Shown here: positions 16,252 to 39,700 of the stretch, piece after piece
Position numbering within the stretch: position 1 is the first letter of the stretch
Layout: every line of letters starts with the position of its first letter
IMG/VR virus record: IMGVR_UViG_3300037067_008462
Source: an uncultured virus (IMG/VR IMGVR_UViG_3300037067_008462)
Taxonomy: Duplodnaviria; Heunggongvirae; Uroviricota; Caudoviricetes
Strand: one strand, 5' to 3'
Length of the DNA stretch: 64,000 nt
Position numbers and translations under genes: made by a program
The notes under the pieces: model-generated
Seen by the model: the letters and a program-made list of their open reading frames with translations, nothing else
Database searches by the model: none
Told to the model about the DNA's origin: nothing

Positions 16252-17059
16252 GGTTGTAATTCTAACTCCCTGTTTAAGAAGACCTGCGTTTTTAAAGATT
16301 CTTAGAAAGATGTTAGATAATCAAACTTTTCAACATTTTACACATATTATTTTAGAAGAAGATTGGAGTTATCAAGAGCATGGATTAGAGTTGTCCGGTT
16401 CGCAATTTGTTCAACTACCATGTAAAGAAAAAGAAGTATATTCGATTGCAAAAAAAATGAATTATGGTTTGAGTTTAATTGAACCAGATGTGGATTTGGT
16501 TTTTAAAATGGATTCTGATAATTATTTTGGACCACTCTATCTTGAAAAGTATATAAATTATTTCGAACAACATCCAGAATGTATTCTATCTTTCTCTAAA
16601 AGAGAGATTTTATACAATATATCAGAGAGAGAGTATGGTAACCTAGAAGTCGTTCAAGACGGCAATGTTTGTTTTCGTAGAGAGTTATTAGATAAAGTAA
16701 AATTTAGAGAAAGTTTTGGAGCAGGAGAATTAGGAGAAGATGCTTGGTTTATATGGGATACAGAATCAGCTTTTGGTAAACAAAGTATCCAACAAATTGT
16801 CCTAGATAAGGACTACATGGTTATCAAACATGTTCCTAAGATCCAACCCTTTACTAACTATAAGACATACAAACCATACAGCTACCCTAAAGAAACCGCA
16901 ATAGAGGTTATCAAAGAGGGTAAAAACTTGTGTACTTACGATGTATCATGCATAACAGACAACAATTGCTCTATTTTAAAGGATGTTGTTTCGGATGAAG
17001 ATATTGTTAAATTTTATGAATCATTTTTTATAAAGTATGACTGTGAGATAAAAACATGA
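16214..17059 (+). CDS. GT2-family glycosyltransferase
   Basis: VILTPC...KMNYG...KMDSDNY (DxD)...GED. Confidence 0.8.
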   Translation: MIQKERFNRDTLKVVILTPCLRRPAFLKILRKMLDNQTFQHFTHIILEEDWSYQEHGLELSGSQFVQLPCKEKEVYSIAKKMNYGLSLIEPDVDLVFKMDSDNYFGPLYLEKYINYFEQHPECILSFSKREILYNISEREYGNLEVVQDGNVCFRRELLDKVKFRESFGAGELGEDAWFIWDTESAFGKQSIQQIVLDKDYMVIKHVPKIQPFTNYKTYKPYSYPKETAIEVIKEGKNLCTYDVSCITDNNCSILKDVVSDEDIVKFYESFFIKYDCEIKT

Positions 17060-17814
17060 TATATGACTGTTGTATGTTTTTTAACGAACTAGATATGTTA
17101 GATCTCCGATTACATGAACATACATATGTTGATAAATTTGTAATCGTAGAAGGTACGAAAACATTTAGTGGTTTAGATAAAGAACTCTATTTTGATAACA
17201 ATAAACATTTATTTAAAGAATTTGAAGACAAAATTATTCACTTAGTAGTAGACGATATGCCCATAGAAGGATCGGCGTGGGACAGAGAAAGACACACACT
17301 AAATGCAATCAAAAGACTTCGTATTAAAGATGATGACATTGTTTTAATAGGAGCGGTTGACGAAATAATTAAAAAGGTGTATCCGGGTTTAAACAGATAT
17401 AAAACAAAGTTATTCTATTATTACTTTAATCATGCTGTAGTTCATTTAGATGGTAAACCTGTTTGGAATGAAGTTGTTTGTAGTGTTGATGGTGCTACTC
17501 TATCTAAATATTCAGTTTTTGAAATTCTGAACGAAAGACTAAAAAATGTTTTGGATTTTACCGTTAGAGAAAGAGGAGGATGGCATTTTTCTTGTGTAGG
17601 TTCTCCCGATTTTATCAGACAAAAAATAGAGTCTTGGTCTCATCAAGAATTCAACACAGAAGAGATGAAGTCTTCAGTTGAAAGAAAAATTAAAGAACAT
17701 AAATATTTGTTCGGAGACGATCAATTTAAGATAGTGAGAGTTGATTTAGACAATTCTTTTCCTAAATATTTATCAAACAATAAAGAACGTTTCAAGGAAT
17801 ATATTGATGTTTAA
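17056..17814 (+). CDS. GT17-like N-acetylglucosaminyltransferase
   Basis: IYDCCMFFNELDMLDLRL...VDKFVIVEG..TFSG..K, VDEI, GGWHFS, SWSHQE. Confidence 0.8.
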   Translation: MIYDCCMFFNELDMLDLRLHEHTYVDKFVIVEGTKTFSGLDKELYFDNNKHLFKEFEDKIIHLVVDDMPIEGSAWDRERHTLNAIKRLRIKDDDIVLIGAVDEIIKKVYPGLNRYKTKLFYYYFNHAVVHLDGKPVWNEVVCSVDGATLSKYSVFEILNERLKNVLDFTVRERGGWHFSCVGSPDFIRQKIESWSHQEFNTEEMKSSVERKIKEHKYLFGDDQFKIVRVDLDNSFPKYLSNNKERFKEYIDV

Positions 17815-18511
17815 AGTTTCCTTTTTATTACCAACTGCGCGTCCGCGTTTTCGTTACATAATGAGAAGTTGGGATATGGAAAATTGTGAAATTTTAATTA
17901 GTTATGAAATTCAAAACCCATATCTAGAAAGATTAACAAATGAAGAAAAATCGACCTTTAAAGCTAACATTAAGGAATTTGAGCATGACGGTCCTAATAA
18001 TGGTGTTTGTTGGGCTTGGAACAACTTAGCTAAACATGCTACAGGAGATGCTATTCAAATCATTGCAGATGATCTTGTTAATATTACCGAAGGAGATTGG
18101 CGTCCTTTTGTTTTGCAACACATTCCTGATTTTTTAACAGAACCGTGGGTAGCAATAGCTAACGATAATTTATATACTTTTCAAAATAAGTTGGCTGCAC
18201 ATCCTCTTATGTCTCGTCATTATTATGATCTATTCGGCTATGTTTGGTATCCAGAATACAAAGCATATGGTTGTGACAATGAGCTTTATTATATTGCCAC
18301 TTCTTTGAATAGAATTAAATTTATTCCTGAGTATGTTCACCAAAACCGACATACAGGTTCGTGGGCCGGAGCAGAATTTGATAAATGGTCAGATTCAATT
18401 CAGGCTACCGGTTCACAGGCGATGGAGGTTTGGACTCAAAAAGATAGAATAGAAAAAATTATAGCAGAAAAAAGGTCATTGATTGATGAAAGATTTAGAA
18501 GTAAAGGATAA
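17804..18511 (+). CDS. GT-A fold glycosyltransferase, paralog of 15544
   Basis: Shares HPLMSRHYYDLFGYVWYP and CDNE with 15544. Confidence 0.8.
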   Translation: MMFKVSFLLPTARPRFRYIMRSWDMENCEILISYEIQNPYLERLTNEEKSTFKANIKEFEHDGPNNGVCWAWNNLAKHATGDAIQIIADDLVNITEGDWRPFVLQHIPDFLTEPWVAIANDNLYTFQNKLAAHPLMSRHYYDLFGYVWYPEYKAYGCDNELYYIATSLNRIKFIPEYVHQNRHTGSWAGAEFDKWSDSIQATGSQAMEVWTQKDRIEKIIAEKRSLIDERFRSKG

Positions 18512-19226
18512 TAACAGAGATTTTATTATCGTCTCATTTTATACAAAAGAATATAAAGATGTTGTTAAATATCTTATTACGTCTTTAGAATGGCTAAAAC
18601 TTCCATATTATATTAGGGAAGTTGAAAAAAAGGAAAATTGGCAAGAAACAACGTGGTATAAACCTTCTTTTATTAAGGAAATGATTATAGCTAATCCTAA
18701 TAAAAAAATTTTTTGGGTGGACGCGGATGCTGCTTTTTTAAGATATCCTACTGAGATCGAACAATGTCAAAAAGGATTCAATATTTGCTATCATTCCCGC
18801 CTTACAACTCCTCATCCAAAAATTCCTCCCGGAGTTACTAAAGATAAAAGATTATATCATTCAGGTTGCGTAGTCGCTACTTCAGAATCTCTTCCTTTAT
18901 TGGAGGCATGGATTAATTCAAAAAACAGATATGATGTTCCTGATCAATATTTAATTAATTTCGCGGTAGAGGCACATCCGGAGGTTCCAATTTCTCCTCT
19001 ATCTTTAGATTATTTAAACACATTGCATGATAATCAAAGAAGATGTGGTTCATTGGTCGTTACTAGAAATCCGGCAGTTATGCATTTTATTTATAGTAAT
19101 GCCACAGAAGATGGAAAACCATGTTCCGACCTTCTATCTTTGTATAGTACCAACGGAAAAAAGAATGCAGAGAGGTTATTATTATATAGGAAAGAATTAA
19201 TAAAACGTGGAGCTAAAACAATCTAA
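18483..19226 (+). CDS. Nucleotide-diphospho-sugar transferase (GT-A)
   Basis: YKPSFIK...FWVDADA (DxD)...HSGC...DQ. Confidence 0.75.
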   Translation: MMKDLEVKDNNRDFIIVSFYTKEYKDVVKYLITSLEWLKLPYYIREVEKKENWQETTWYKPSFIKEMIIANPNKKIFWVDADAAFLRYPTEIEQCQKGFNICYHSRLTTPHPKIPPGVTKDKRLYHSGCVVATSESLPLLEAWINSKNRYDVPDQYLINFAVEAHPEVPISPLSLDYLNTLHDNQRRCGSLVVTRNPAVMHFIYSNATEDGKPCSDLLSLYSTNGKKNAERLLLYRKELIKRGAKTI

Positions 19227-19238
19227 AAGGAGATTTTC

Positions 19239-19775
19239 TTGTATAACCTAGACGAGGTTCATAAGGCTTTTTGGCACGTTAATATGATTGCTTATTTAGC
19301 AAAACTATTAGAACCGAATATATATGTTGAATTGGGTATTGAGGTAGCCTCTACTATCAATGCAGTTGCGAAACATGCAAAACGTTGTTTGGGCGTAGAT
19401 ATTAATCCTGCCTGTAGAGCAAGCATTACAGAACCAAACATAGAGTTTTTTTGTGAGACTACTGAAGTATTTATTAATAACTATAAAGATGTAAATATCA
19501 ATATGGTATTTATTGATGCCGATCATAATTGTGATGCCGTCATTAGTGATTTTAGAGGAATTTATCCCTATGTGGTTGATCAGGGAATAATTTTATTACA
19601 CGATACATACCCTGGCAGCAAAGCTTACACAACTCCATTTTTTTGCAACAATGCATATCAAGCTGTTGATATATTGAGAACGGAATATAAGGATTGTGAA
19701 TTCACCACGATTCCCGTTCATCCAGGTTTAACTATTTGTAGAAAAAGGATCGATGATTATTCATGGCTAAAATAG
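19239..19775 (+). CDS. Class I SAM-dependent methyltransferase (Methyltransf_24-like)
   Basis: YVELGI...GVDI...VFIDADH...IILLHDT. Confidence 0.8.
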   Translation: MYNLDEVHKAFWHVNMIAYLAKLLEPNIYVELGIEVASTINAVAKHAKRCLGVDINPACRASITEPNIEFFCETTEVFINNYKDVNINMVFIDADHNCDAVISDFRGIYPYVVDQGIILLHDTYPGSKAYTTPFFCNNAYQAVDILRTEYKDCEFTTIPVHPGLTICRKRIDDYSWLK

Positions 19776-20830
19776 TAACAATATTAGGCTGTAGACCAGA
19801 GATTATTCGTTTGTCTTTAATTATTCCACTATTAGATAAAAATTTCAAACACACCCTGATTCATACGGGTCAAAATCAAGATCCGTTACTTAAGGATATC
19901 TTTTTTAACGAACTTAATATAAGACAACCTGATATTTCTTTAGATATTTCTAATAACGCTTGGTATGGCCGTATGAGTAAGTTGATGTTACAATGCGGTT
20001 CTTGGTTAAGAGAGATAGAGCCTGATAAAGTACTGATTTTAGGAGACACTGATTCTGCATTGTCTTCTCTCTTAGCTAAACGCATGGATATTCCTGTTTA
20101 TCATATGGAAGCTGGCAACCGTTGTAGGGATGATCGTTCTCCTGAAGAAGCAAATAGAAAATGTATCGATCAATGCAGCGAAATACTCATGCCGTATACA
20201 GAACGGAGTCGGCAAAATCTATTATTGGAAGGATTCAAAGAAAACAAAATATTTGTTATCGGTAATCCTATAACAGAAGTATTAGATCAGTATCATTATC
20301 GTATTAAACAATCAGATATTCTAGAACAATTACATTTAGAAAAAAATAAATATGTTCTTGTTACAGTTCATCGGGCCGAGAATGTGGATTACAAAAGAAA
20401 CTTAAACGGCATTTTTGAGGGATTAACTTTATGCCAAAGATACATAAATATGCCTTTTATCATCAGCACTCATCCTAGAACAGAACAAGCTCTATCTTCT
20501 AATCCAATATCGAATAACAATTTAACATTCGGAAAACCATTTGGATTTCTAGATTTTCTAAAACTACAAATGAATGCATTGTGTGTTATTACTGACAGTG
20601 GAACGGTTCAAGAAGAGTGTGCTATTAATCACGTTAGAAATATAACTATCAGAAGAACAACCGAAAGACCAGAGACGGTTGAATGTGGTAGCAATATAGT
20701 TTGTGGAGATGAACCCGAGAGTATTCTGAGGGGGTTTAAGGTTGCCTTGAATTCTAGTACTGCCTGGATATCTCCTTATCCTCTTACTATGACGAGCGAA
20801 ACAGTTATTAAAATTATAGGTGGTGTTTAG
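19763..20830 (+). CDS. UDP-N-acetylhexosamine 2-epimerase (WecB/FnlC/Cap5G family)
   Basis: ILGCRPEIIRL, HTGQ, LGDT, HMEAGNR, PEEANR, TDSGTVQEE, TERPE. Confidence 0.9.
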   Translation: MAKIVTILGCRPEIIRLSLIIPLLDKNFKHTLIHTGQNQDPLLKDIFFNELNIRQPDISLDISNNAWYGRMSKLMLQCGSWLREIEPDKVLILGDTDSALSSLLAKRMDIPVYHMEAGNRCRDDRSPEEANRKCIDQCSEILMPYTERSRQNLLLEGFKENKIFVIGNPITEVLDQYHYRIKQSDILEQLHLEKNKYVLVTVHRAENVDYKRNLNGIFEGLTLCQRYINMPFIISTHPRTEQALSSNPISNNNLTFGKPFGFLDFLKLQMNALCVITDSGTVQEECAINHVRNITIRRTTERPETVECGSNIVCGDEPESILRGFKVALNSSTAWISPYPLTMTSETVIKIIGGV

Positions 20831-21646
20831 ATGAAAGTTTTAATCTTAGGGGCAAATGGTTGTTTGGGACATCAATTGGTAGATTATCTTTCTGAGATAC
20901 ATACAGTAAAAGGTCTAACTCGTTCTGAAATCGGAGACATAAAATATAACCATCAACCTCTATGGTTAAAGATGAGATTGTTTAAGCCGGATTGGGTTAT
21001 TAATTGTATTGGAGCAATCAAACAAAAAGATTATTCAAGAAAAGATTTTATCTATATCAACTCTCTTTTTCCTCACCAGTTAGTTGATATGTGTCAATCT
21101 TGGACAAAACTAATTCATATCAGTACTGATTGCGTTTTTTCCGGTAACTTAAAACATCATTATTCATATACAGAATCAGATGACACAGATGCTTTGAACG
21201 ATTATGGAAGATCAAAGGCGTTAGGTGAAATCTTAGATAAAGAAAACGTTATTACATTGAGAACCTCTATAATAGGGAGAGAACTTAATTCTCGTCATGG
21301 TTTGTTTGAGTGGTCTTTAAGTAATCAAGGGGAAATAATTAAGGGGTTCAAAAATGTGCTATATAGTGGTCTAACAACTTTAGCCCTAAGTAAAGTCATT
21401 GATGACCTCATAACAAAAGACTCTATCTCGACAGGTTTATGGCACGTTTCATCTCAACCTATATCAAAATTAGATCTATTAAATGAGATCAATGATATAT
21501 TCGAACTCAATCAAACAATTCAAGAAACACCATATCCGCATATCAATCGAAAGTTGAATTCTTCTAAATTTAAACTTAAAACAGGTTATCAACCTTATTC
21601 TTGGGATCAAATGTTAGAAGAATACAAAGAGTACCTGATTTTCTAA
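20831..21646 (+). CDS. RmlD-like NDP-4-keto-6-deoxyhexose reductase
   Basis: ILGANGCLG, HISTDCVFSG, YGRSKALGE, LRTSIIGRE. Confidence 0.9.
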   Translation: MKVLILGANGCLGHQLVDYLSEIHTVKGLTRSEIGDIKYNHQPLWLKMRLFKPDWVINCIGAIKQKDYSRKDFIYINSLFPHQLVDMCQSWTKLIHISTDCVFSGNLKHHYSYTESDDTDALNDYGRSKALGEILDKENVITLRTSIIGRELNSRHGLFEWSLSNQGEIIKGFKNVLYSGLTTLALSKVIDDLITKDSISTGLWHVSSQPISKLDLLNEINDIFELNQTIQETPYPHINRKLNSSKFKLKTGYQPYSWDQMLEEYKEYLIF

Positions 21647-22756
21647 AAATCACGAAAAAATACTTGTAAAACGGGATATAGTGTCTATGTAATGCAAAAA
21701 ACATATAAATATAGACTCTATCCGAATCCATCTCAAGAGGCAAAAATGAATGCAACTCTTGAAGGATGTCGGATTTTCTATAATTTATTGTTAGAACAAC
21801 GCATTAAAGCTTGGAGAGAGTCTCGCAAAAACCTTAGCGCATACGATCAAATGAAAATGCATTCTGGATGTTCTAAAGAAATTGGTATCTATTCACAAAT
21901 ATTACAACGCATAGCAATTCAATTAGACGGAGCATTTAAGAACTTCTATCGCAGACCTAAGTGTGGATTTCCTAGATTTAAAGGGAAAAACCGTCTTGAT
22001 AGTTTTTGCTTTCCACAAAACGGATGGAAACTAGAAAAGGACAAGATTACGATTTCGAAGATTGGTACAATCAATATCATTCTGCATCGCCCTTTAAAAG
22101 GAAAAATCAAACAATTAATAATTAAAAAATGGAATAATCAATGGTATGCCTGTTTCTCAGTAGAAACAGAACCAAAAGATTATGGAACAGCTACGGAAGC
22201 CGTAGGAATTGATGTAGGAATCAAAAAGTTTGCCGTATTTAGTGATGGAACAGAAATTGAAAATCCTCGCTTTTTCAAACGAGATCAAAAAGAATTAGCG
22301 AGAGTACAACGTAACAAGAATAAAAAAGCAATCACAATCATTCATCAAAGAATTTGTAATCGTAGATTAGACTTCACTCATCAATTAACAACTAAAATTG
22401 TTAAAAACTACAGTGAAATCTTTGTTGAAAAACTAAACAAAAAAGGAATGAAATCGTTCCGAGAAATAAATCGAGCTTTAAGCGATGTTGCATGGGGAAA
22501 ATTCAGAGAATTATTGAAATACAAAGCGGAAGAAGCTGGTAGAGTATATAAAGAATTGAATCCCGCAAACACCACAAGAAAATGTTATAATTGTGGTAAC
22601 ATCGTTAAAAAACAACTGAAGAATAGATGGCATTTTTGTCCGAGATGCGGAATTAGCATTGATCGAGATTTGAATGCTGCTCTAAATCTTCTCGCATTGG
22701 GGCATCAATGCGTTGGTATAGAAACCATAAAAGCTCTATCTTAGAGAGTATGTCAC
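21647..22756 (+). mobile_element. IS1341-like solo-TnpB element
   Basis: Sits inside the sugar cluster; right-end-like hairpin CTCT-ATCTT-AGAG followed by GTCAC (TCAC at 22753-22756). Left boundary is uncertain. Confidence 0.55.
21692..22744 (+). CDS. tnpB: TnpB RNA-guided endonuclease (IS200/IS605 family, no TnpA nearby)
   Basis: YKYRLYP HTH, GFPRFK, RuvC motifs GIDVG / VEKL / DRDLNAA, and a CxxC...CPxCG zinc finger. Confidence 0.92.
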   Translation: MQKTYKYRLYPNPSQEAKMNATLEGCRIFYNLLLEQRIKAWRESRKNLSAYDQMKMHSGCSKEIGIYSQILQRIAIQLDGAFKNFYRRPKCGFPRFKGKNRLDSFCFPQNGWKLEKDKITISKIGTINIILHRPLKGKIKQLIIKKWNNQWYACFSVETEPKDYGTATEAVGIDVGIKKFAVFSDGTEIENPRFFKRDQKELARVQRNKNKKAITIIHQRICNRRLDFTHQLTTKIVKNYSEIFVEKLNKKGMKSFREINRALSDVAWGKFRELLKYKAEEAGRVYKELNPANTTRKCYNCGNIVKKQLKNRWHFCPRCGISIDRDLNAALNLLALGHQCVGIETIKALS

Positions 22757-22835
22757 AACTGGAAATGACTTATCTAATTTTTGGGTAAGAGCTTTATTGT
22801 AAATGTTGTAAATCTGACACGATGGAGATGTCAAG

Positions 22836-23561
22836 ATGGAAATGAATACTGTTTATGTCGTTGTTGATCGTTCAACTTTGTTGATGGCTCGTCAAGAATT
22901 TGTTGTTTTATTGGGAGTAGATGAAGATGGAAAGTATTTTCTCCCAATGAATAATTCTTATGTTGAAAATCATAAAGTTGAAATTAATGAAGCAGACGTT
23001 GTTCTTCCTTCTGCTTCGGCTTTAGTTCTTCCCCCTACATACCGTTTTAAGATCATTAATTCTGATTTTAATACTGCAAAACCACAACCTCTTCCCCATA
23101 ACGGACGTATTAATTTAAACTTCGCAAGATTTATAAATATGGGCGCATATGCGTATGGTAATGATGTTATGTTTTTCTATTACAAAGAACCGGGACAATT
23201 AATATTTCCGACACCAAATGTTGTGTCTCAGGACACTACACAACGTGATGATGGGGGTTTTGAAGTTAAAACAACATGTACGTATCTTCCTGGTCAAATT
23301 CCAGGAAACAAATATTATATTGATATCAAGGATTTATTTAAAAATAGAGTATATATAAAAGAAGACGATACTGCATCTTTAACCGATACTTTTGCGTTTA
23401 TTTATAATAGAGAAAATATGTGTCTTGATGTAAAAGTATTATCTAACAGTGTTAATAGTATAGAGAATGATTCACCAATAACAGATACTATTTTCGATAA
23501 AGTTGAATCGGCATTAATAAATCTTAAGTCGTCTCGTAAGCCATTAAATACACCAGAATAA
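22836..23561 (+). CDS. Hypothetical protein
   Basis: 241 aa ORF with GGAG RBS. Confidence 0.6.
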   Translation: MEMNTVYVVVDRSTLLMARQEFVVLLGVDEDGKYFLPMNNSYVENHKVEINEADVVLPSASALVLPPTYRFKIINSDFNTAKPQPLPHNGRINLNFARFINMGAYAYGNDVMFFYYKEPGQLIFPTPNVVSQDTTQRDDGGFEVKTTCTYLPGQIPGNKYYIDIKDLFKNRVYIKEDDTASLTDTFAFIYNRENMCLDVKVLSNSVNSIENDSPITDTIFDKVESALINLKSSRKPLNTPE

Positions 23562-23576
23562 AAACGAGGATGATTA

Positions 23577-24563
23577 GTGTTAAAAAATAAAAGAATATTA
23601 ATTTTAGGTGGAACTGGTAGTTTAGGCGGAAAACTTCTAGATAGAATCTTAAATAAGACCGACGATCTCCCATCTTCTATCACAATTTTTTCAAGAGACG
23701 AAGACAAACAATTTCATCTCAAAAACACTCTATCTAGAAAGTATGAACATCACAATATAGTTAAATTTATTCTTGGAGATATTAGAAACTTTTCCAGTAT
23801 AAGATCAGCCTTAAAGAATCAAGATATTGTTCTAGGTGCTGCCGCCTTAAAGCATGTTCCTGGTTGTGAACTTCATCCATTTGAAGCCGTTCAAACAAAC
23901 ATTTTAGGTTATCAAAACGTTATTAATGCTATCGAACAAGGTTCTCTGCCTGTTGAAACTGTCATAGGGATTAGCACTGATAAAGCTTGTAAACCGGTTA
24001 ATGCTATGGGAATGTCTAAGGCTTTACAAGAAAAACTCTATATTGCCGCCAGTACCAATTCATCCACCAGATATGTTCTTGTTCGCTACGGAAACGTGTT
24101 AGGTAGCCGTGGTAGTTTGATACCTATCTTCAAGAATCTATTAGCTAACAAAATACCCTTAACGATTACAGACTTTCGCATGACTAGATTCCTTATGACC
24201 TTAGACCAATCGGTAGATATAGTATTTGATGCTATTAAATATGGCAAACCGGGAGAAATCTTTATTCCAAGGGTTCCCTCGGCAATTGTTATGGAAATAG
24301 CGGAAATTATGGCTCCTGATCAAGAATTCTTCGAAGCTACAGGAATAAGACCGGGAGAAAAATTGCATGAGATTTTGGTAAGCGAAGAAGAAGCACATAG
24401 AACCTACGATAATGGTAAAAATTACGTTATACAACCAGCAATTCCTTCTTTTATACCAAATCCAAATTTCAATTATTTGATTCATGAGTATGGAAGTAAA
24501 GACGAAATCATCTCAAAAGATGAAGTTAGAAAAATTCTTAAAGATAACGGATTTCTAAACTAG
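23577..24563 (+). CDS. UDP-GlcNAc 4,6-dehydratase/epimerase (FnlA/PseB/CapD family)
   Basis: GGTGSLG, FSRDEDKQ, AAALKHVP, STDKACKPVNAMGMSKA, VRYGNVLGSRGS, GIRPGEKLHE. Confidence 0.92.
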   Translation: MLKNKRILILGGTGSLGGKLLDRILNKTDDLPSSITIFSRDEDKQFHLKNTLSRKYEHHNIVKFILGDIRNFSSIRSALKNQDIVLGAAALKHVPGCELHPFEAVQTNILGYQNVINAIEQGSLPVETVIGISTDKACKPVNAMGMSKALQEKLYIAASTNSSTRYVLVRYGNVLGSRGSLIPIFKNLLANKIPLTITDFRMTRFLMTLDQSVDIVFDAIKYGKPGEIFIPRVPSAIVMEIAEIMAPDQEFFEATGIRPGEKLHEILVSEEEAHRTYDNGKNYVIQPAIPSFIPNPNFNYLIHEYGSKDEIISKDEVRKILKDNGFLN

Positions 24564-24577
24564 TATAAGGAAAATAA

Positions 24578-25095
24578 ATGGACGATAGAAAAGAAATCAT
24601 TGTAGCTAAATCAATAGCTTTCACACTATTCAGTCTTAACGTAAAAGAAAAGAACGGTGATAATCGCGGAGAAATTGTAGAAGAACTTCTAGACAGGCGG
24701 GGGGAGCGCCGAAAATGCCGTGGTGCGTTGCAACCGCTAATTTTATCTATTTAACAACCTGCAAGCTATTAGGGATTACACCATTATTAAAGCCAGGGTT
24801 AAGTAGTAGTAATTTCATAAATAGAGCGAAAAATATGACGTTACCGAACGGTAAAAGTCGTGTCATCGATCCTGATTTAGAGCCTAATAGAATTAAAGAA
24901 GTTACCGATGGGTGTTTTGTTGTTTACGAAGGAGAAGCGTATGGAACTGGTTATGTTCATACGGGCTTCGTTTGGACTCCAATAGATGACAAAGGAAATT
25001 ATGAAACTATCGAAGGTAATAAAAACAATACAGTAGCAAAAGTTAAGCGTAATCTAAAGAAATCTCCGTGTAAATTTATTAAATTATTTGATTAA
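24578..25095 (+). pseudogene. CHAP-domain cell wall hydrolase split by a -1 frameshift near a G6 tract
   Basis: AAGGA RBS + ATG 24578 gives ...VKEKNGDNRGEIVEELL (stop at 24754); the -1 frame carries PWC, HTGFV and TIEGN. Confidence 0.7.
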
Positions 25096-25787
25096 TGTTA
25101 GTATCAATTGTTACTCCGTCTTATGATAGGGGCAAATTCCATCCCATTCTATCTCGGATAGTACAAGATCAAACATATAAAGAGATAGAGCATGTCGTTG
25201 TGGAAGAAAGAGAGAGTTTTGATCGACATGGAATTATGGTGGAAGGGGCCAAGCATATTATAGTAGATCAACCTCGACTGTTGATGCACGAAAAAAGAAA
25301 TCTTTGTTGTGAATATGCTTCGGGTGACATTATCATTAATTTCGATTCAGATGATTATTATCGCCCACAATATGTCGAAGAAATCATGAAGCATTTCAAT
25401 AGATATCAAAAAGCAATAACTCACTCTATCTTAAATATATATGTTTTAAAAAAGAAATTATATTACATATCAACAAGAAGCAAACCTTATTGGGGTAGCG
25501 GCGCTCTTTATCCTAAAAGTTTATGGGAAGAACTTAAATATCTACCAGCAACATCAAATACAGGAGAAGACACAAATTTCTTTTCTAGAATTCATAAACT
25601 AAATAAGCTTTTCCCAACAGACTTCCTCTATCTTTATACGATAGCAATGCGTCATGGAGAAAATATAACAGTAGAAGTTAAAAGAGGAAGAGTGGTAAAT
25701 GATGAACATCACAGGTTCTTGAAAGAAATAGTTGTTCAACCTGAAATTCTAAAGTTTTATATGGATGTGGGTACAATGGTTTTGTAG
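25095..25787 (+). CDS. GT2-family glycosyltransferase
   Basis: VSIVTPSYDR...KRN...NFDSDDYY...GED. Confidence 0.85.
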   Translation: MLVSIVTPSYDRGKFHPILSRIVQDQTYKEIEHVVVEERESFDRHGIMVEGAKHIIVDQPRLLMHEKRNLCCEYASGDIIINFDSDDYYRPQYVEEIMKHFNRYQKAITHSILNIYVLKKKLYYISTRSKPYWGSGALYPKSLWEELKYLPATSNTGEDTNFFSRIHKLNKLFPTDFLYLYTIAMRHGENITVEVKRGRVVNDEHHRFLKEIVVQPEILKFYMDVGTMVL

Positions 25788-25872
25788 CTCTCTGGCTTAG
25801 TGTGAGTCATCAAGGAGAGCTATCTTAGGACCGTTTCCCCCGGAGCAATCCGGGGGCTTGATTTTTTCTTTT
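25784..25872 (+). ncRNA. Putative small structured RNA with its own terminator
   Basis: Predicted +1 lies 6 nt after GGG-TACAAT; bulged hairpin 25784-25823; GCAA-tetraloop hairpin 25837-25856, then T-rich. Confidence 0.45.
25837..25872 (+). terminator. Terminator-like hairpin
   Basis: CCCCCGGA-GCAA-TCCGGGGG followed by a T-rich tract. Confidence 0.7.
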
Positions 25873-25886
25873 CCTTGTGGTATGAT
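25858..25886 (+). promoter_or_regulatory. Sigma70-type promoter for the tRNA-like RNA
   Basis: TTGATT-17-TATGAT with TG. Confidence 0.7.
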
Positions 25887-25892
25887 GTTAAT

Positions 25893-25964
25893 GCTCTCGG
25901 GGATTAGTGTAACGGCAGCACAGTTGATCACTAGATTGGGTTCGAATCCCATGTTTCCGGGAGC
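25893..25964 (+). ncRNA. tRNA-like RNA lacking a normal anticodon arm, with an extended closing stem
   Basis: D-arm TAGTGTAACGGCAGCAC, T-arm TGGG-TTCGAAT-CCCA, only ~14 nt between the arms, 12-bp terminal stem. Confidence 0.65.
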
Positions 25965-25971
25965 TTTTAAT

Positions 25972-26000
25972 TTGACTTTCTCAATGTTTTGTGGTATAAT
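25972..26000 (+). promoter_or_regulatory. Strong sigma70-type promoter of the tRNA cluster
   Basis: TTGACT-17-TATAAT with TG. Confidence 0.85.
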
Positions 26001-26106
26001 ATACACGGTCGGCAACAACGGGAAGTCGTGACACCGTAAGTCTTACCGTAGGTACCAAGGTGTATCACAATAACGACCAAAGAAACAGACTACGCTGACT
26101 CTTTAT

Positions 26107-26178
26107 GGGGAATTAGTGTTAACGGCAACACGATTGGCCTGCAACCAGTAATTTAGGGTTCGAATCCCTAATTCTCCA
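26107..26178 (+). tRNA. tRNA-Ala(UGC), with atypical C33
   Basis: GGGGAAT/ATTCTCC acceptor with G3:U70 and A73; anticodon stem ATTGG/CCAGT around loop CC-TGC-AA; T-arm TAGGG-TTCGAAT-CCCTA. Confidence 0.8.
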
Positions 26179-26183
26179 AATAT

Positions 26184-26269
26184 GGAACTGTGGCAGAGTG
26201 GTCGATAGCAAAAGGCTGTTAACCTTTCGGGTTTTTGCCCCATCTTAGGTTCGAATCCTAACGGTTCCG
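26184..26269 (+). tRNA. tRNA with a GUU (Asn) anticodon on a long-variable-arm (class II) body
   Basis: GGAACTG/CGGTTCC+G73; AAAGG-CTGTTAA-CCTTT; 17-nt variable region with a GGG/CCC stem; TTAGG-TTCGAAT-CCTAA. Confidence 0.85.
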
Positions 26270-26274
26270 TTTAA

Positions 26275-26347
26275 GGGGTAGAAGTGTTGATGGTAACACA
26301 ATGCTTTGTCAGAGCAAAAATTGCAGGTTCGACTCCTGTGTACCCCG
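26275..26347 (+). tRNA. tRNA-Asp(GUC), slightly degenerate
   Basis: GGGGTA/TACCCC+G73; loop TT-GTC-AG; T-arm GCAGG-TTCGACT-CCTGT; A at position 8 and some mismatches. Confidence 0.75.
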
Positions 26348-26354
26348 CTTTTAT

Positions 26355-26429
26355 GGCTCTGTGGTGTAACGGAAACACGGTAGACTGAAAATCTATTAAT
26401 TCCACGTTCAAGTCGGGACGGAGCCACCA
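26355..26429 (+). tRNA. tRNA-Phe(GAA) with encoded CCA
   Basis: GGCTCTG/CGGAGCC-ACCA; GTAGA-CTGAAAA-TCTAT; imperfect T stem. Confidence 0.8.
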
Positions 26430-27495: not shown

Positions 27496-27497
27496 AA

Positions 27498-27766
27498 TGA
27501 GACTAATTATAATTAAACAATACTTTGATAGAGAAGAAACTTTTGTTTTTGATCAAAACGATAGTGCAGGTTTGGCTGCTTTTAGAGATAAACAGATCAA
27601 AGATATTATGAAAGACAACATTACCGATGGGGAAACTATATCAGTGTTTTATAAAAAAGAGTTTGACAAACTTGTTTCAAAAAAGAATAAAGTAAAGAAA
27701 AATTGTTGTCGTTATTTGGGTTCACCTGATAAGGATTTTGAAGATATTTGGGTGACAGAAATATGA
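27498..27766 (+). CDS. Hypothetical protein
   Basis: GAGG RBS before the ATG at 27498 (MRLIIIKQY), inside the tracked 27425 ORF. Confidence 0.55.
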
Positions 27767-27984
27767 TTGATTACATCAAAATTGACAAGGCTATGGATAT
27801 TGTTCGTGCTGTTAGAAAATATAAAAGTCAGAACAAAATGGCTCCCAATGCTCCATTGGAAACTTTCATTATGGATATCCCAGAAGGAACACTAGAGGAA
27901 TATAAAGAAGCACTTACATTATGTCGTGGAGATATTTATAGTGCTACGCATGTTAAAGAATTCAAATTTGTAGAAGAAGAATGA
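27763..27984 (+). CDS. Small protein resembling the C-terminal part of the ValRS anticodon-binding domain
   Basis: DIVRAVRKYKSQNKMAPNAPL...DIYSATHVKEF recalls the ValRS 'IRKxKSExxLxLNxPL...DI' segment; ATGA-coupled to serS. Confidence 0.5.
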   Translation: MIDYIKIDKAMDIVRAVRKYKSQNKMAPNAPLETFIMDIPEGTLEEYKEALTLCRGDIYSATHVKEFKFVEEE

Positions 27985-28736
27985 TTGATTTCGAAAGAGG
28001 CGCTAAAACAACCGGAAGCAAATTCTATTTCAATACTGGTAAGACAGCATTGATAGAATGGAATCTTATCAATAAAATGATAGAATTTCACACAAAGAAT
28101 GGATATGAACTTGTTTTTCCTCCTCATCTTGTAAAAAAAGAAATAGGTGTTTACGCCGGACAGCTTCCTAAATTTGAAGGCGATTATTATTTAACTACCG
28201 ATAATCTTATGCTTATTCCTACCGCTGAAACAGCAATGGTTGGATATCATGCAAACGAAATTATAGAAGTTCCCAAAAAATATGTAGCAGTATCTCCATG
28301 TTTCAGAAGAGAATGTGGTTCTTATGGGGTTAGAGATAAGGGACTAAGGCGCGTTCATCAATTCAACAAAGTAGAGTTGTTTAGAATAGAGAAACAAGGT
28401 ATTCAAGACGAAATCTTAGATCTTATGATAACTGAAGTAACTACATTACTTAAAGAATTAGGTGTAAATAATATTAGAACTATGGAGTTGAACGAAAAAG
28501 ATAGAAGCGGGGGCGCTCTACGAACAATAGATGTTGAAATACAGTTACCTTCAACGGGTGAATGGCTAGAGGTTTCTTCTATCAGTTGGACTGGTGAAAA
28601 TCAATCGAAACCTGCCTTGATTAGATATAGAGAAGGCAATAAAAATCTAAAGTGCCATTTGTTTAATGGATCGGGAGTTGCATTGCCTAGATTGATGTTA
28701 GTATTATTGGAGTTACAAACAAATGATAACTTTTAA
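27981..28736 (+). CDS. serS: Seryl-tRNA synthetase catalytic core only (no N-terminal coiled-coil arm)
   Basis: DFERGAKTTGSKF, GQLPKF, LIPTAE, motif 2 CFRREcGSYG.RDKGLRRVHQFNKVE, LEVSSIS, motif 3 NGSGVALPR; only 251 aa. Confidence 0.88.
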   Translation: MIDFERGAKTTGSKFYFNTGKTALIEWNLINKMIEFHTKNGYELVFPPHLVKKEIGVYAGQLPKFEGDYYLTTDNLMLIPTAETAMVGYHANEIIEVPKKYVAVSPCFRRECGSYGVRDKGLRRVHQFNKVELFRIEKQGIQDEILDLMITEVTTLLKELGVNNIRTMELNEKDRSGGALRTIDVEIQLPSTGEWLEVSSISWTGENQSKPALIRYREGNKNLKCHLFNGSGVALPRLMLVLLELQTNDNF

Positions 28737-29679
28737 TTTAGCAGAAAATGGTGAACCAGAAGAAGAACTTTTTCCAAAGTTCGAGGCTAGATTCAATCAA
28801 ACTAGTCCAGAGGGTTGTTGGTGTAAAGGTAGAGTGGATGTTGTTCAGATTAATCAAGACGGAGAACAAATCTTAGGTTCTTATGAAAGGAATTATGGTG
28901 GCGCTCCGTTTTTCGCCTTTAAAAAGGGTGAAAGATGGTTTGCTCTATATTCTACTGATTATACAGCTACTAGAATTATGGAAATTTTTCCTGGTCAAGG
29001 TTTTAAAGATCTCGGAGGAGAAGAAAAAACAACTTGGGGGTTTTGTCCTGTTGCATATCACGTTCCAAAAGTTAAGAGTTTTTTTAGTACTAAATTATGG
29101 AAAGATCAAATTAACAAATGGCAAGCCATTATAGAAAAAGGCGGGGATGGTTATTGGACAATAAAAGAGGCAACCCGTAGAAAAGGTTGGAGTGAAACAG
29201 AAAAGGAAGAATTCGAACAATATAAATCTCTTTGCGATATTGGTTATTGGCATGATGATGAAGAAGAGGATCAATCCGGTTTTCTCTATCTTCCCCCCAA
29301 ATATGCTTTGATTATTGGTTGCGTCTGGGGGGATGATAGCGATTGGAAGATCCAAATTATCGATCTACATGATTGTGAGAACGGTAATATTACTCGTTCG
29401 GATAGAATGGGATACATTCCGTTTTGGGGCAAACTAAGCGACATTGAGGATGTTGATGTAGATGGTGGATTGAAAGAATGGTTTACGGAAGACAAACCAG
29501 ACCTCTATTTTGAATTTCCAGCATTAATTCATAGTAACTTTGCTGACGGAGAGATAGAAGCGATTACATTTAAAAATCATTCAGATAAGAAAAAGATAAA
29601 ACAACTAAAAGAAGAAATAGAGAGATTGAAGTCTCTCATTCCTGATTACAAAGAACCAGAATGCGAGAAATCAACTTGA
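28723..29679 (+). CDS. Hypothetical protein
   Basis: 318 aa ORF with GGAG RBS. Confidence 0.65.
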   Translation: MITFNLAENGEPEEELFPKFEARFNQTSPEGCWCKGRVDVVQINQDGEQILGSYERNYGGAPFFAFKKGERWFALYSTDYTATRIMEIFPGQGFKDLGGEEKTTWGFCPVAYHVPKVKSFFSTKLWKDQINKWQAIIEKGGDGYWTIKEATRRKGWSETEKEEFEQYKSLCDIGYWHDDEEEDQSGFLYLPPKYALIIGCVWGDDSDWKIQIIDLHDCENGNITRSDRMGYIPFWGKLSDIEDVDVDGGLKEWFTEDKPDLYFEFPALIHSNFADGEIEAITFKNHSDKKKIKQLKEEIERLKSLIPDYKEPECEKST

Positions 29680-33797: not shown

Positions 33798-36700
33798 ATG
33801 CCACTTCAGAAAATAACTTTCGGTGAAGGCTCCAATGTAACAGCGTTATGTTTAAACAACATGACTACGGCATTCACCAACTATATTGCTTCACACGAAC
33901 ATGACGGGGAAGAAGCTCCATTTATAGATGCGAGATATGTAAGTATCAGCGGCTTGGATGTTAACCCTTACAATATTACGCTTTACGATCACGCACACGA
34001 CTATTCGATCCATTCATATACAGATCCAGCTTCAACCAACAATATCAAATCCGATAAATTAAGTGAATCTGATTATGTAGAAATTAATTTGGTTAGTGAT
34101 TGTAGCGATTGGTCGTTTAACGGTTTATATTGGGAAACTTACGTTCAACTCTCACAGCCTTATTCTGAAGACTACACCGTACAAATTCAACCGGTTTATA
34201 GTGGAGACTATGTAAACTTCTTTGAAAATTTGAACTCAGCAGCTAACCTTGCTAACCTCGATGGTATAGTTCCATTAAACAACTCTCTATTGAACATACA
34301 CCTGATTCCTTGTAATCTAAACTCTAACGGATTCAGTATTCGTTTGTACGCCATTGGTAAAGGTACGCGACATCAATTAGTTTCATACGACGAAAGTTCT
34401 TTTGCAAACAAGAGAAAAGTTTATATGGGAGAGGATATCTCTCTTCCTATCGCTGGTAATCTAACAGCGGGAGAATTTCAACTTCCTTATAAAGGAGGAT
34501 TTTCATATCTTCCAAGCACAGGCTCTATCTCTATTCCTGTAGAGATAATGTTAAATATTTCAGCTACAGTAACAGCAAATAGAAAAGAGATTATTGTAGG
34601 AGAGAATGTTCAAGCCTTACCGTTTAATATTGGATTTAATGAGTTTTATGCTTTCTCCGCACGACTTCTAGCTGGCTATCGCGCCAATAGTGACATTTCT
34701 TATGAAGAAATGCGTAATATGGGATTTATTTCCAATGATGACATTCAAAACTTAATGAATCATGGTACTCAATCCCTGACAGAACAACAGCAGAAAAATC
34801 TTTCCTTTGAAAGTGAAAACGAAATTTCTTATAGACAAAGATCTTTCACGGTTATTGATCGTTACAGTCAATCCTCTTTTGGAGGCGACCTCCTAGATCT
34901 TCGTAAAAGCTCAAAAGCTGACCTATATTATGTTCAGATTGTAGAAACTGAAATCAATGCTTCCGGAGGTAGTGTTGGAGCGGTACCAAAAACTCGTAGA
35001 TTTATGGTCCCTCTTAAAAATGTACAAGTTGTTGGTAGCGATGTAGTTAAAATTAGAATTGCAGGTGGAAACTTGGTTCCAAGATCGGTAGATGGTTTTG
35101 GAAACATTGAATACACCAACGTTTTCTTACAGGGTGATTATGAAGTAATTGATGATGAAAATATTATTATAAGAAATTCAACCTTCAACGGTATCTCTGC
35201 TGCTAACCTTTATTATGAACCAGCCGAAGATACTTTTATTACCCTCCTAGAAGGGAACGAAGTTCTAGCTCAAGATTTTCCTGTTTCTATTAATTTTGAC
35301 GCTCAAAAATTCATGCCCGAGAATCTTCCTCTCACTCTATCTACCTATCAAGCAGGAGAAACAATATCATATAGATCATCGGATGCATATCTGATAAAAG
35401 AATATCCGAATCTAAACGAAGTCTATAAGAACTGGAAATCAGACTGGATTTTCGCTAAAAAGGGAAGTAGAGGATCTCTTTGCACACGCGTTAAGATTCG
35501 CCCAAGGTTCTTTAATATCAACGAGGGTACTTCGTTTATTATTCCTGGCAAGACATATATTAGAAACAAGAAAAACATTATTCTAATGAAAGAAGATCTT
35601 GTTGCCAATTATTCAGGATCTCAAGATCGCTTCATTATGAAACCGGGATTAAAGACAAACATTAACAAATCCGAATGCTATAAGGCTCTCAACCAACTGA
35701 GCTATCAAAAATCGGACTATTCCAGCCACTTTTATACTTATTTGAAATGGCCTTTAAGTGATGGAACATACAGTGAAGCATACGCCGAAGTTTTAAATAA
35801 CACAATCATCAACTATCTGGTTAATGATGTATTAACGTTTTCTAAAAACAAATATATCGATAGATATCGTATTGGTAAACGATTCGATGCTACCTTTAAG
35901 AACTATACTACAGTAACTGGTACTCTTTATAGCTACCTAGATGACAATGACGAGAGAGTTTATTATATCAAAACAAAAGATCAACCGTCATCTTCTATTC
36001 TCACAAGTGGTTTGGTACCATCAAGTCACTCAAAAGTAAAAATCCTGTTATCTAAATCTTCGTATCTAAATTATATCAATTCACCTTTTACGGCTGAAGA
36101 TGTTGTTGCAAAGTTCAATGGATTGGATGACTCCGGATTAACAACCGGTCCATTTAATGATCTGATCGAAACAATCGCTACGATTAAATCTGTTACACAA
36201 AACAGTGATGGTTCTTGGAATATAAATCTTTATAGTCCAGCAGACGTAACTGGATTAATAACTTGGGATGACGTTGCTTATTTAGATAGAGTCTTGAATA
36301 GTGATCTGTTCCCGGCTGATGTCGTAAACATCGGTGGAGAACCAATCTTTTTATACAAAAATCCAAAGAAGCCAACATTATTAAAAAGAACATATTGTGA
36401 ACTTGCAGCTAAAGCTACAGTAAATGAAATATCCAAGATTACTACGAATGATTATCGAGGTATTTCTTACGGCTTTGATTTATTTAAAGAGGATGCAACC
36501 GCCGATACAGTAGAACATTATCTGTACATAGGTTACGATACTCCATTCAACTATATTTCTTTCGTAATGGAACATGCTCTTGATGCCAGTTTGCTTAAAT
36601 CTACTACCGATATCACTTATGAATATTTGTCGGAAGGTGGCGCTTGGACTGCGCTTTCGCTTTTAAGTTCTGACGGAAACTCAAACGTTTTTTGGGATCA

Positions 36701-39700
36701 ACATCCCAACCTAACCTCTTATAATACCAACAATTTAGCAACCATCGTATTTCAGAGACCATCTATCTATAAGGGAACTAATAAGTGGGTCTTTAGTACA
36801 ATCCCAGAAAGTCCTAGTGATAGCAAATATTGGGTGAGAATGAGGGTTCAAACCAAAACACATTCTACCTTAAGTTTTGCTGACAGAAAAGAATTGTATC
36901 CATCGTTCCGTCAAACATTAATAGGCTCTATCTCTGAAGGAGAAATCTTAATTCGTCTAGCTTCACCAGCAGCAATAACAATTTCAGGTTCACCTTCATA
37001 TACAATAGAAATTGATCCAGCTTATGCTACTACAATTAATTGGGACTATATCAAAGAAGGAGACATGGTTTCATGGCAAGATAGTGTTACGGGAGCATAT
37101 CATTCGGCTATCATTCGTACTCCTGTAGATGGTAGCCCTAGCTCTGTTACTATTGATCTTAAATCTGAAGGTAATGCCGTTGATGGAACCGCCAGTGAAC
37201 TACATATTCGTAGGAATCCTTTCTCATATTTAAGAAACATCAATTTCTCTACTGATCGTCATATTAATACACAAATCACTAGAGAAAACAAGTGGAATCC
37301 ATTTGAACCATACAGTACTGCCGGTTTTAATAGAAGTCCAGCTTATTCTATAAAGAAACAACAATGGCTTCTGTTTAGCGATGATACAGAACCAGATTAT
37401 ACCAATATTACGGTTGAAGGAATTCGCAACTGTTTTGATAACTATCATGGAACAAGAAGTTCAGTAGATGTAGATAAATTCTTTTTTGACATAGAAGGTG
37501 TAATATACGATACACTTCCGGTTGTAGAATCGGACAGAATCGATGACATTATTGATATTGACGATGATTTCAAAATCAATCAAAAGCTATGGGTTAATCT
37601 TTTTGCACCACCCAACTCTCCTTCTGATGACAAGGAGATGTATTTCTTTGTATGCAAGCCGGTAAACGAAGATAGATATTATCTTGCAACGGTTTCTAAT
37701 GACTCATCTCTTATTCCAACAAGAGAAGAATTGCTCTCCACTTGGCTTATGGGAACCTTTGCCGATAAATATGCATATATTTGGAATGAAAACTTTCCTA
37801 TTTTAACTAGAAATCTTCCTTATACTCTTCCTTCTGGTTCACCAGACTCTCTATCTTTTGTGAGAGATGAAGCTGGTCTAGATTTCAATCAAAGAGTTGA
37901 AGCATATCATAAAGGAAAGATAGAGTCTTTTGGAGGGAAAGATGTTATAGGTTTCACCTTCGATACTAACGACATTTTTGACTCTTACGATGTGACTCGT
38001 CCTACATTCACCGGTCTTGCTTTTACTCCATCGATGCAAATCTGGCCTTACGCGGCTGGTTCTGAAATTACGTTACCTAATGGTGGATATTATTCTATAG
38101 TTCTACCTATCAATATTGTAACTTTTGGAGATATATTTAAAAACTACTATCCCGGTGTTGGTGGCAATCCTGCTTTTTATTATTCAGATCCACGTGCCAT
38201 ATTAACAAAGGAATATGGAATTAGCAGTTCAGCTTATCGTGTTAATCTTCTAGAATTTATATCTGGAACATATAAACAGGTTGAAGATGTTGAAAAATTG
38301 TCTGATTCTTATGATATCATTTTAAACGGAACTAATACTGATGTTAAAAGAGTTTTGAGTGATCAGTATGACGAATGTGCTGTTTTAATTGACACAACCG
38401 ATAATTATCTTGATACCAACATAATTTATGGTAGAACCAATGATCCAGTTTCTACTGTAAAACATCTCTATAATATGATTGATGTCCTTGTTCCCAAGTT
38501 TGGCGTCAGTCGTAAAACTGTCGATCTAGGTAAAAATAAAGAACAAGATGCTACACCTGAGTTCCAGGTTCCTGTCCAATACACACTGACACTAAAAGAT
38601 GATGCCGACTCAAGCACTAAAACACTTCAAGATGTAGATTTTGGTTTAGGTAATGGTTTATATTGTTTCACTGTACCACTACAAAACATTAAACATTATC
38701 ATCCTTTACTTGAAGGAAAATATTACGGAATCGATGCAAAAAGATCTGATTCTTATATAGATGTAGATAATCTTTTTGATCCTGCCGGTTCTCCCGATAG
38801 TTCGGTAACTAACTGTTATGAAATTGCAGCCAAAAGAGATTATTCAAACCCAGAAAATACTTTAATTTGGACTTTTGCTAACTTTAACGGTAATAGTGCT
38901 ATTCATATAGCCAATTGGGGTTATCACGCTTATTACAATTTAGGTCATACTCCTCTTCCCACAAAAACTAAAATTTTCAATTGGGGAATTCTTGATAAGT
39001 TTGTAGCAGCGGGAGATTACGATGGAGTTAGTCGTCCATACTACGAATACAACAAAGTCAAAAGCGAAGAAACGCTGATAGACTTCCTTCAGGGATCGAG
39101 CGTATTTTTAAGAAGTTATCGTTACGATATGTGGGATGACACTAACAGTTGGAAAAATCCCTCATATACAGAATGTGCCGATGAAAGATTTATTGGTGTT
39201 ATCGATAAAGTAGAAAAACTTCCCTTCTCTAAAGGCGCAGCTTCTATTTTAACTAACTTCGCTACTTTATCATTTAAAGATGGAGAAACAACCAACCTAA
39301 CAGATCTTTCTCCGACTTCTTTCTCTACCGACAACATTGTATCAAGAGAAATCGATCCTCCTTCAATAACCGAAGATGGTTCACTTTATATCATCCAAGA
39401 GGGAGCTACAGGAGAATGGAATGGCTCTCCGGATTCTTATATTGGTTATATCGCTGAATCCGTTTATCCTTCCGGTACGTGGATATATCACGAACCAGAA
39501 AGGGGCTGGCGTTGTTATGTAGAAGCAGAAGAAGCTTGGTATGTTTATACCGGTACATTCTGGACTAAAGATTATTCGGTAGGAAATCAAACTATCCCTG
39601 ACACCGCCGAGTATCTTCTGTTCTTCAGGGGAGACGGCAATTCAATTTGGCAAACTTCTGAAGATCTAAATAACCAATATTCCGAAGGCGGCATTATTGA

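Follow-up and report, generated by a model that had tools for sequence, protein, structure and literature searches.

How a phage might use a seryl-tRNA synthetase (SerRS) stripped of its coiled-coil arm, which is regarded as the main device of this enzyme for recognising tRNA-Ser, is the question raised by a gene in a 64,000-nt stretch of DNA from an uncultured member of the Caudoviricetes (IMG/VR record IMGVR_UViG_3300037067_008462). The whole of this stretch is hereafter called the window. An earlier note, made from the letters alone, had described the gene product as a 251-aa SerRS with motifs 1 to 3 and the TxE serine-binding loop intact but without the N-terminal coiled coil, and had pointed to an overlapping upstream open reading frame (ORF) of 73 aa, here called the mini-ORF, that resembles part of valyl-tRNA synthetase (ValRS). 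We find that the window SerRS belongs to a clade of core-only enzymes of single origin, carried by uncultured and mostly huge phages. On the reading that we tentatively prefer, which falls a little short of probable, the gene is an intact member of that clade, its product activates serine and serylates tRNA-Ser, and the mini-ORF is an insertion. The gene is the following:

27981..28736, plus strand: core-only SerRS of 251 aa, without arm and tail (serS and PF00587 profiles, AlphaFold2 model, clade membership)

The frame is open over 251 codons and specifies an intact class II SerRS core. The model TIGR00414 (serS equivalog) matches the product with an E-value of 9.7e-64 and 215.9 bits, below its curated cut-off of 301.65, and residues 1-244 correspond to positions 151-399 of the 418 in the model. 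PF00587 (73.2 bits; cut-off 29.3) is the sole Pfam family in the protein; the Pfam profile search found no PF02403, the coiled-coil arm. A profile of the armless family was aligned to the 425-aa SerRS of PDB entry 2dq3 at residues 151-401 only, from which it follows that the arm and its base (about 150 N-terminal residues) and about 24 C-terminal residues are missing. The hallmark residues are present in motif 1 (P47-P48), in the TxE loop (T81/E83), in motif 2 (R109/E111 and R124-F128) and in motif 3 (N229-R237), so that profiles and residues agree with the earlier description of the enzyme. An AlphaFold2 model (predicted local distance difference test score of 78.7) has template modelling (TM) scores of 0.80-0.82 to SerRS cores, 9qof among them. 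The window sequence recurs without any difference in contigs of a second study, and a protein database entry puts the window SerRS on a contig of 134 kb.

With the window SerRS as the query, a protein search scored 8,000 candidates, 7,974 of them at E ≤0.001. The best 120 of these 7,974 matches (query included) are 53-65% identical, measure 226-344 aa and carry PF00587 only, the PF02403 arm being absent from all of them; the armless relatives make up at least 119 protein clusters beside the window protein. We define the clade by a start at the segment D-F-x-x-G-x-K/R (consensus DFERGAK), a length of about 245-265 aa and a position on the armless side of the tree, and the window SerRS fits this definition by segment, length and tree side. 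The segment begins after 2-3 residues in 105 of the 120 members and after 5-10 residues in five others, and in three more it is preceded by an unrelated called extension of 17-82 residues. Seven members do not match the strict start pattern: two begin deeper in the core, and the other five show a variant of the motif at the usual position (for P0004 and one further member, this was deduced from the pattern counts).

When the search was limited to proteins of at least 441 aa, none of the 120 matches listed was an armed or fused form as close as the clade members: their identity does not exceed 47%, and PF02403 is present in 119 of them. Species-representative genomes of bacteria and archaea gave 595 confirmed matches, of which the best 80 are only 39-46% identical to the window SerRS. 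Thirty-six of these 80 were examined: 33 have 134-150 extra N-terminal residues (410-432 aa in total), two are cut by a contig end and one has an ambiguous start. A maximum-likelihood tree was built from 24 of the 80 bacterial cores together with 33 armless members chosen from across the 120; in it, a branch with a Shimodaira–Hasegawa-like approximate likelihood ratio test (SH-aLRT) support of 100 sets all 33 armless proteins apart from the bacterial ones. The core-only SerRS is a single-origin clade, and the truncation characterises the family as a whole and did not arise by a recent break. Whether homologues share the truncation was a check proposed in the earlier note, and the absence of PF02403 from the best 120 relatives, the common start of 105 of them and the fully supported branch show that they do; the recent pseudogenisation that the same note had allowed for would leave relatives with a full-length serS, and the best 120 are all armless.

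Two clade members, P0043 (the protein of L001 5001-6005) and P0033, have a C-terminal extension of about 85 aa. IF2_N matches these extensions below its cut-off (P0043 residues 266-319 and P0033 residues 265-315; E-values of 0.012 and 0.014, 15.6-15.8 bits).

For an estimate of the sequence constraint, the 120 armless members were aligned with 32 bacterial cores, and a column was called conserved if the same residue occurred in at least 90% of the sequences of both groups. In all, 48 columns are universally conserved, including T81, E83, R109/E111, R124-F128, K130, E132, E186, E197, S199/S200/S202, N229, S231, G232, A234 and R237. In SerRS-tRNA complexes, the motif-2 loop touches the acceptor stem. 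The length of this loop is unchanged in the armless clade, and two of its positions differ in character: position 118 is R or K in 81% of the armless proteins versus D or E in 72% of the bacterial ones, and position 123 is K or R in 100% versus I or L in 85%. The window SerRS has the basic residues typical of the clade at both (R118 and R123). Judged by sequence, the switch is what one would expect if binding of the acceptor stem had to compensate for the lost arm.

Four clade-bearing contigs were found in IMG/VR, the same four by a family-specific DNA pattern and by an alignment scan (a scan of the viral contigs with a single protein query gave no loci). Two of them are rated 100% complete: G001 (532,729 bp), which is flagged as a provirus, and G002 (498,568 bp), which has direct terminal repeats; both carry an armless SerRS. 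The contigs of other clade members reach 673 kb. The carriers of the clade are uncultured phages, mostly huge, and carriage is likely purely viral. A collection of cultured phages contained no clade member, all 112 records matched by tblastn being less than 60% identical, and no close DNA relatives of the window. The sole annotated phage SerRS that was inspected, that of Brevundimonas phage Gurke, is full length (a coding sequence of 1302 nt). A match to an “Acinetobacter phage” SerRS was set aside, as it is surrounded by bacterial housekeeping genes. A metagenome scan with universal SerRS motifs gave 80 loci of at most 43% identity, which were taken uninspected as ordinary SerRS and are uninformative on the clade.

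Could the phage encode an arm elsewhere? In G001 and G002, PF02403 matched at 14.8-19.9 bits only, in no case above the cut-off, and all 14 control genomes gave a match (13 of them above it). The top weak match in the complete phages is a generic coiled coil; the other two (17.0 and 14.8 bits) were not individually inspected. A second SerRS-like gene is absent from both, and these two complete phages supply no recognisable arm. G001 and G002 do encode other stripped class II proteins, all of them in these two huge phages: HisRS-like cores of 205 aa (L176 1044-1661, plus strand) and 237 aa (L174 1115-1828, plus strand), both below the hisS cut-off; a GlyRS-like core of 270 aa with a weak GlyRS match (L177 981-1793, minus strand); and a ThrRS of 408 aa that covers model positions 171-549 of 565 and misses the N-terminal part (L178 1028-2254, minus strand).

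The tRNA genes of the carriers bear on the likely acceptor. There are 72 of them in G002 and 56 in G001, and each genome has four for tRNA-Ser, with anticodons GGA, GCU, UGA and CGA and lengths of 86-95 nt. In G002, the armless SerRS gene (343,077-343,820) lies within a tRNA array of 25 kb, and the block of tRNA-Ser genes (GGA, GCU, UGA, CGA) is directly downstream, at 344,451-346,426. Two short clade-bearing contigs are without tRNAs. The G+C content is 35% in the window and 51-60% in the tRNA stretches of G001 and G002. In the window, the tRNA genes are grouped:

26106..26429, plus strand: tRNA cluster (Ala UGC, class-II-type GUU, Asp GUC, Phe GAA), 1.5 kb upstream of the SerRS gene, possible substrates

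The second of these tRNAs (26183-26270) is 88 nt long, with the asparagine anticodon GUU and a 4-bp stem in the variable arm, as in class II tRNAs; it has a discriminator G and an acceptor stem, GGAA...UUCC, like that of phage tRNA-Ser.

Long tRNAs with unexpected anticodons occur in the complete genomes as well. Eight of the 72 tRNAs of G002, at 327.8-352.9 kb and 463-466 kb, measure 83-92 nt and have anticodons other than those of Ser, Leu or Tyr (Lys UUU, Asn GUU, Arg UCG, Arg UCU, Gly UCC, Cys GCA, His GUG and Ile GAU); the five that were inspected all have stems in the variable arm, and four of the eight have a twin of normal length in the same array. The GUU tRNA of G002 (330593-330682; L195 13793-13882) is 90 nt long and has a long variable arm and a U1-A72 acceptor like that of tRNA-Asn. 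G001 has a 94-nt tRNA with anticodon UCA, an acceptor start GGAAG and a long variable arm (80837-80930), and a 91-nt tRNA with anticodon CUA (491736-491826), both suppressor-like or Sec-like class II tRNAs. Two further sites look tRNA-like by eye. One is just upstream of the window cluster (25780-26100), with a T-loop motif GGTTCGAATCC and a hairpin followed by a T-run; ARAGORN and Rfam made no call there. The other is directly upstream of the armless SerRS start of G002 (L003 4900-4975), with the 7-nt loop CGTTGAA and likewise no ARAGORN call.

What, then, is the 73-aa mini-ORF that precedes the window gene? The junction comprises the following elements:

27497..27766, plus strand: upstream ORF of 89 aa without a family match; its stop overlaps the mini-ORF start (ATGA)
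27757..27772, plus strand: 16-nt direct repeat, copy 1, over the mini-ORF start and first codons
27763..27984, plus strand: mini-ORF, an orphan of 73 aa that resembles the end of a class Ia (Val/Ile) anticodon-binding domain (weak profiles, Atlas model)
27975..27990, plus strand: 16-nt direct repeat, copy 2, over the SerRS start and first codons

The TGA of the mini-ORF (27982-27984) overlaps the ATG of the SerRS gene (27981-27983) in an ATGA, as had been stated before, and a 242-nt contig of the second study bridges this junction with identical sequence. The likeness to ValRS is less firm, all family matches being below their cut-offs, but it is consistent, and the three matches are co-linear: NF009687 (E-value of 1.8e-4; residues 7-72 at model positions 731-791 of 801), TIGR00422 (E-value of 5.1e-3; positions 727-789 of 863) and PF08264 (E-value of 0.028; 14.7 bits versus a cut-off of 25.1). 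The ESM Atlas model of the exact mini-protein has TM scores of 0.66-0.74 to the Anticodon_1/DUF5915 end of proteins of the Ile/Val-RS type, class I synthetase families accounting for seven of the 10 rows shown. A single-sequence AlphaFold2 model was poor (score of 64.1), and Foldseek found nothing for it in the PDB at E ≤0.001. The identity of the mini-ORF as a class I synthetase fragment is, thus, weakly but coherently supported. Comparison with the PDB by phmmer gave chance-level matches to ATP synthase gamma only. Run exhaustively against 1.84 billion representatives, phmmer returned the mini-ORF itself and two spurious proteins, and no true relative; the two long matches are repeat or low-complexity proteins, not ValRS.

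The two copies of the 16-nt repeat are identical at 14 of 16 positions and spaced by 218 nt, and their 10-nt core occurs only at these two sites in the window; by virtue of the repeat, the mini-ORF and the SerRS both begin with Met-Ile-Asp. The simplest reading is that a segment of 218 bp entered the SerRS gene at its very 5′ end and gave rise to a second copy of the start; on this view, the ancestral junction is the ATGA shared with the 89-aa ORF upstream. The G+C content of the mini-ORF segment is the same as that of its surroundings. Start overlaps are found for 14 of the 69 plus-strand ORFs of the window (eight ATGA and six of one base), so that the coupling between the mini-ORF and SerRS is generic there. 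No match to the mini-ORF was found in G001 or G002 even at an E-value of 10, and none of the four related loci has it in front of the armless SerRS. The mini-ORF is an addition peculiar to this lineage and no conserved partner of SerRS; the same neighbour, for which the earlier note had proposed to check the homologues, is missing from these loci. A programmed frameshift that would fuse the mini-ORF to SerRS was ruled out, 105 of the 120 members starting at the same place without an upstream piece. A co-fold of the SerRS alignment with the mini-ORF scored 0.00; it was run without controls and carries no weight either way.

Beyond the gene itself, the neighbourhoods have little in common. An all-against-all comparison of the ORFs within about 6-8 kb, for the window and four viral loci, found SerRS and its overlapping shadow frames only. 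On its 3′ side, the window gene is followed by:

28723..29679, plus strand: downstream orphan ORF of 318 aa, with a 14-nt overlap with the SerRS 3′ end

For this ORF and the other small neighbours, profile and structure searches gave no family and no usable look-alike. In L001, a GluRS-like ORF, its motifs read by eye, lies within 1 kb after the armless SerRS. In L002, a viral contig of 8 kb, a 27-nt direct repeat (2155-2181 and 2904-2930; 24 of 27 identical, spacing of 749) brackets the armless SerRS, by which the upstream ORF shares the terminal residues of SerRS; the next gene downstream (3019-3546) looks, by eye, like that of a homing-type endonuclease.

Because the complete class II active site is kept, the core would be expected to bind ATP and serine and to make seryl-adenylate, as the conservation suggests. 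On our preferred reading, the acceptor would still be tRNA-Ser, to judge from the genomic context and the motif-2 changes, and its acceptor stem would be docked by the more basic motif-2 loop. The arm may have been dispensed with, the core alone holding the tRNA through the acceptor stem, or the full-length SerRS of the host may lend its arm across the dimer, as SLIMP does for SerRS2alpha of animal mitochondria; the mini-ORF would have arisen by the 218-bp insertion that duplicated the SerRS start. Several points weigh against this reading. The tRNA-Ser genes are beside SerRS in only one of five loci, the gene neighbourhoods are readable for four relatives only, and one clade member is filed in NCBI under a Woesebacteria metagenome-assembled genome (“Serine-tRNA ligase, partial”). 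Deletion of the arm from E. coli SerRS reportedly abolishes most of the tRNA charging (Borel 1994, Vincent 1995). Purified armless SerRS2alpha does not aminoacylate on its own, according to the relevant part of PMC10570016. On both grounds, charging by the phage core alone is doubtful; the heterodimer with the host SerRS is purely conjectural. Moreover, the window copy departs from its clade. It deviates at five of the 48 universal columns (L97V, A112C, S142Q, N203W and L228F), which makes it the most deviant of the 120 (the next highest count is two), and at 11 of the 111 clade-conserved columns (median of two), and its end branch, of 0.51, is the longest in its part of the tree. By its sequence, this particular copy may be altered or weakened. 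The stronger form of that argument, that the clade is functional and the window gene is drifting to loss after the 5′ insertion, can point to the same branch and deviations, N203W falling within the segment E-x-S-S-x-S-N; but the frame is intact over its full length, the residues of motif 2, motif 3 and the TxE loop are all kept and the identical sequence occurs in a second study, and we regard decay as distinctly improbable.

Serine might instead be passed to a protein, a carrier or a small molecule, as by the amino acid:[carrier protein] ligases (aa:CP ligases), PoxA or enzymes of the AsnA type. Such a non-tRNA acceptor would go well with the loss of both appendages that hold the tRNA and with the other stripped class II cores (HisRS-like and GlyRS-like) in the same phages, phrog_4806 being a further match; armless synthetase paralogues with acceptors of this kind are known (described in part of PMC9437257). 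Against it stand the five loci, none of which has a carrier protein, a transferase or any further neighbour that is conserved, the weak matches to the methanogen-type serS models (NF002120, E-value of 0.005; TIGR00415, E-value of 0.1), the motif-2 loop, which is of full length and more basic, and the location of the G002 gene in a tRNA array beside tRNA-Ser genes; on balance, we hold this to be unlikely. We think it quite unlikely that the core is there to hijack or poison the host SerRS, that is, to form heterodimers which lower or redirect host serylation and add no charging capacity. A heterodimer would indeed have one arm per two active sites, but the strong constraint on the full catalytic apparatus in 120 members would be needless for a pure poison, the complete tRNA-Ser sets of the phages suggest support of serine decoding, and the G+C contents of the carriers, 35% versus 51-60%, hint at diverse hosts, so that an interface tailored to one host would be difficult to maintain. 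The same low probability, in our estimate, attaches to an arm-independent SerRS that recognises tRNA-Ser without its long variable arm and frees this arm for other phage tRNAs, such as the 88-nt GUU tRNA, the captured ValRS fragment perhaps adding an RNA-binding piece; if true, a rule of tRNA identity would have been rewritten in these phages. Very unlikely, finally, is a two-subunit enzyme, in which the ValRS-like 73-aa protein gives the core a new RNA-binding surface or specificity, for example for tRNA(GUU). The mini-protein resembles the end of a class Ia anticodon-binding domain, it overlaps the SerRS start in an ATGA, its frame stays open though no sequence relative is detectable, weak IF2_N-like extensions in two clade members show that small helical modules recur, and the window SerRS is the most divergent member at the universal positions. 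Yet the mini-ORF is an orphan with no counterpart at the four related loci or in G001 and G002, and the 16-nt repeat on either side of it, which duplicates the SerRS start, is the signature of an insertion; start overlaps are common in the window, and every family match is below its cut-off. The swapped-in RNA-binding subunit that the earlier note had imagined is, therefore, unsupported at the level of the family.

The remainder of the window is phage DNA of 35% G+C, with a capsid gene among its contents. An HNH endonuclease fused to a Mom-family domain is encoded at 8742-10319, a TnpB (OrfB_IS605/Cas12f-like) at 21692-22741 and a 3310-aa ORF with a DUF2793 stretch at 33798-43727; a block of glycosyltransferase and nucleotide-sugar genes (UDP-GlcNAc 2-epimerase, RmlD-like, Polysacc_synt_2) occupies 15544-25787.

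Huge phages encode up to 15 synthetases per genome, and in the main text of the survey that reports this (PMC7162821), the term “seryl” does not occur. The part of a 2022 review that treats known SerRS paralogues lists the albomycin-resistant SerRS2, SLIMP and the aa:CP ligases and leaves phage armless SerRS unmentioned (PMC9437257). Full-text literature searches gave no description of a core-only phage SerRS clade, which is newly described here among the synthetase cores that have shed their tRNA-binding domain. A conserved core-only clade implies either lone charging via the acceptor stem, a replacement catalytic subunit in the host enzyme or a role outside translation, and each of these three options would be new for phage-host biology. 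With stripped HisRS-like and GlyRS-like cores in the same phages, reliance on minimal synthetase cores may be a strategy of phages in general.

Amongst known systems, the bacterial-type SerRS (TIGR00414; PDB 2dq3, 1ser and 6r1m) shares motifs 1 to 3, the TxE loop and the length of the motif-2 loop with the phage form, its best cores being 39-46% identical to the window SerRS; the phage form differs in lacking about 147-150 N-terminal and about 24 C-terminal residues, in scoring below the serS cut-off and in forming a separate branch. Amongst phage families, phrog_4806 (about 190 positions, annotated as histidyl tRNA synthetase) is likewise a core-only class II fold and matches the window SerRS with an E-value of 8.8e-12, but it is a family of different specificity, and the SerRS clade is far closer to true SerRS (phrog_16140, a profile of 426 positions, roughly as long as a complete SerRS; E-value of 1.1e-52). 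The aa:CP ligases derive from the methanogen-type SerRS and adjoin a carrier-protein gene; none is found among the neighbours of the window SerRS. Like the phage core, these ligases are SerRS homologues with no tRNA-binding domain, and they activate amino acids, as the phage core is expected to do (PMC9437257 lists the ligases).

The arm-deletion mutant of E. coli SerRS (PDB 9qof, 2025) binds a seryl-adenylate analogue, according to the title of the entry, and resembles the model of the window SerRS with a TM score of 0.80. It is a laboratory construct of 368 aa, in which the C-terminal tail and the base of the N-terminal domain are still present, whereas the phage core, of 251 aa, is natural and conserved. 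A natural precedent for the borrowed arm is SerRS2alpha of animal mitochondria, an armless subunit that, according to PMC10570016, has no activity by itself and cannot charge tRNA unless SLIMP is present with its coiled coil. It resembles the phage core in being a natural form of SerRS with the active site but not the coiled coil, although the two belong to unrelated lineages. SLIMP is an arm-bearing paralogue with a dead active site, encoded in the same genome (PMC10570016). No such arm-bearing partner was found in G001 or G002, and the host enzyme would, therefore, need to play the part of SLIMP.

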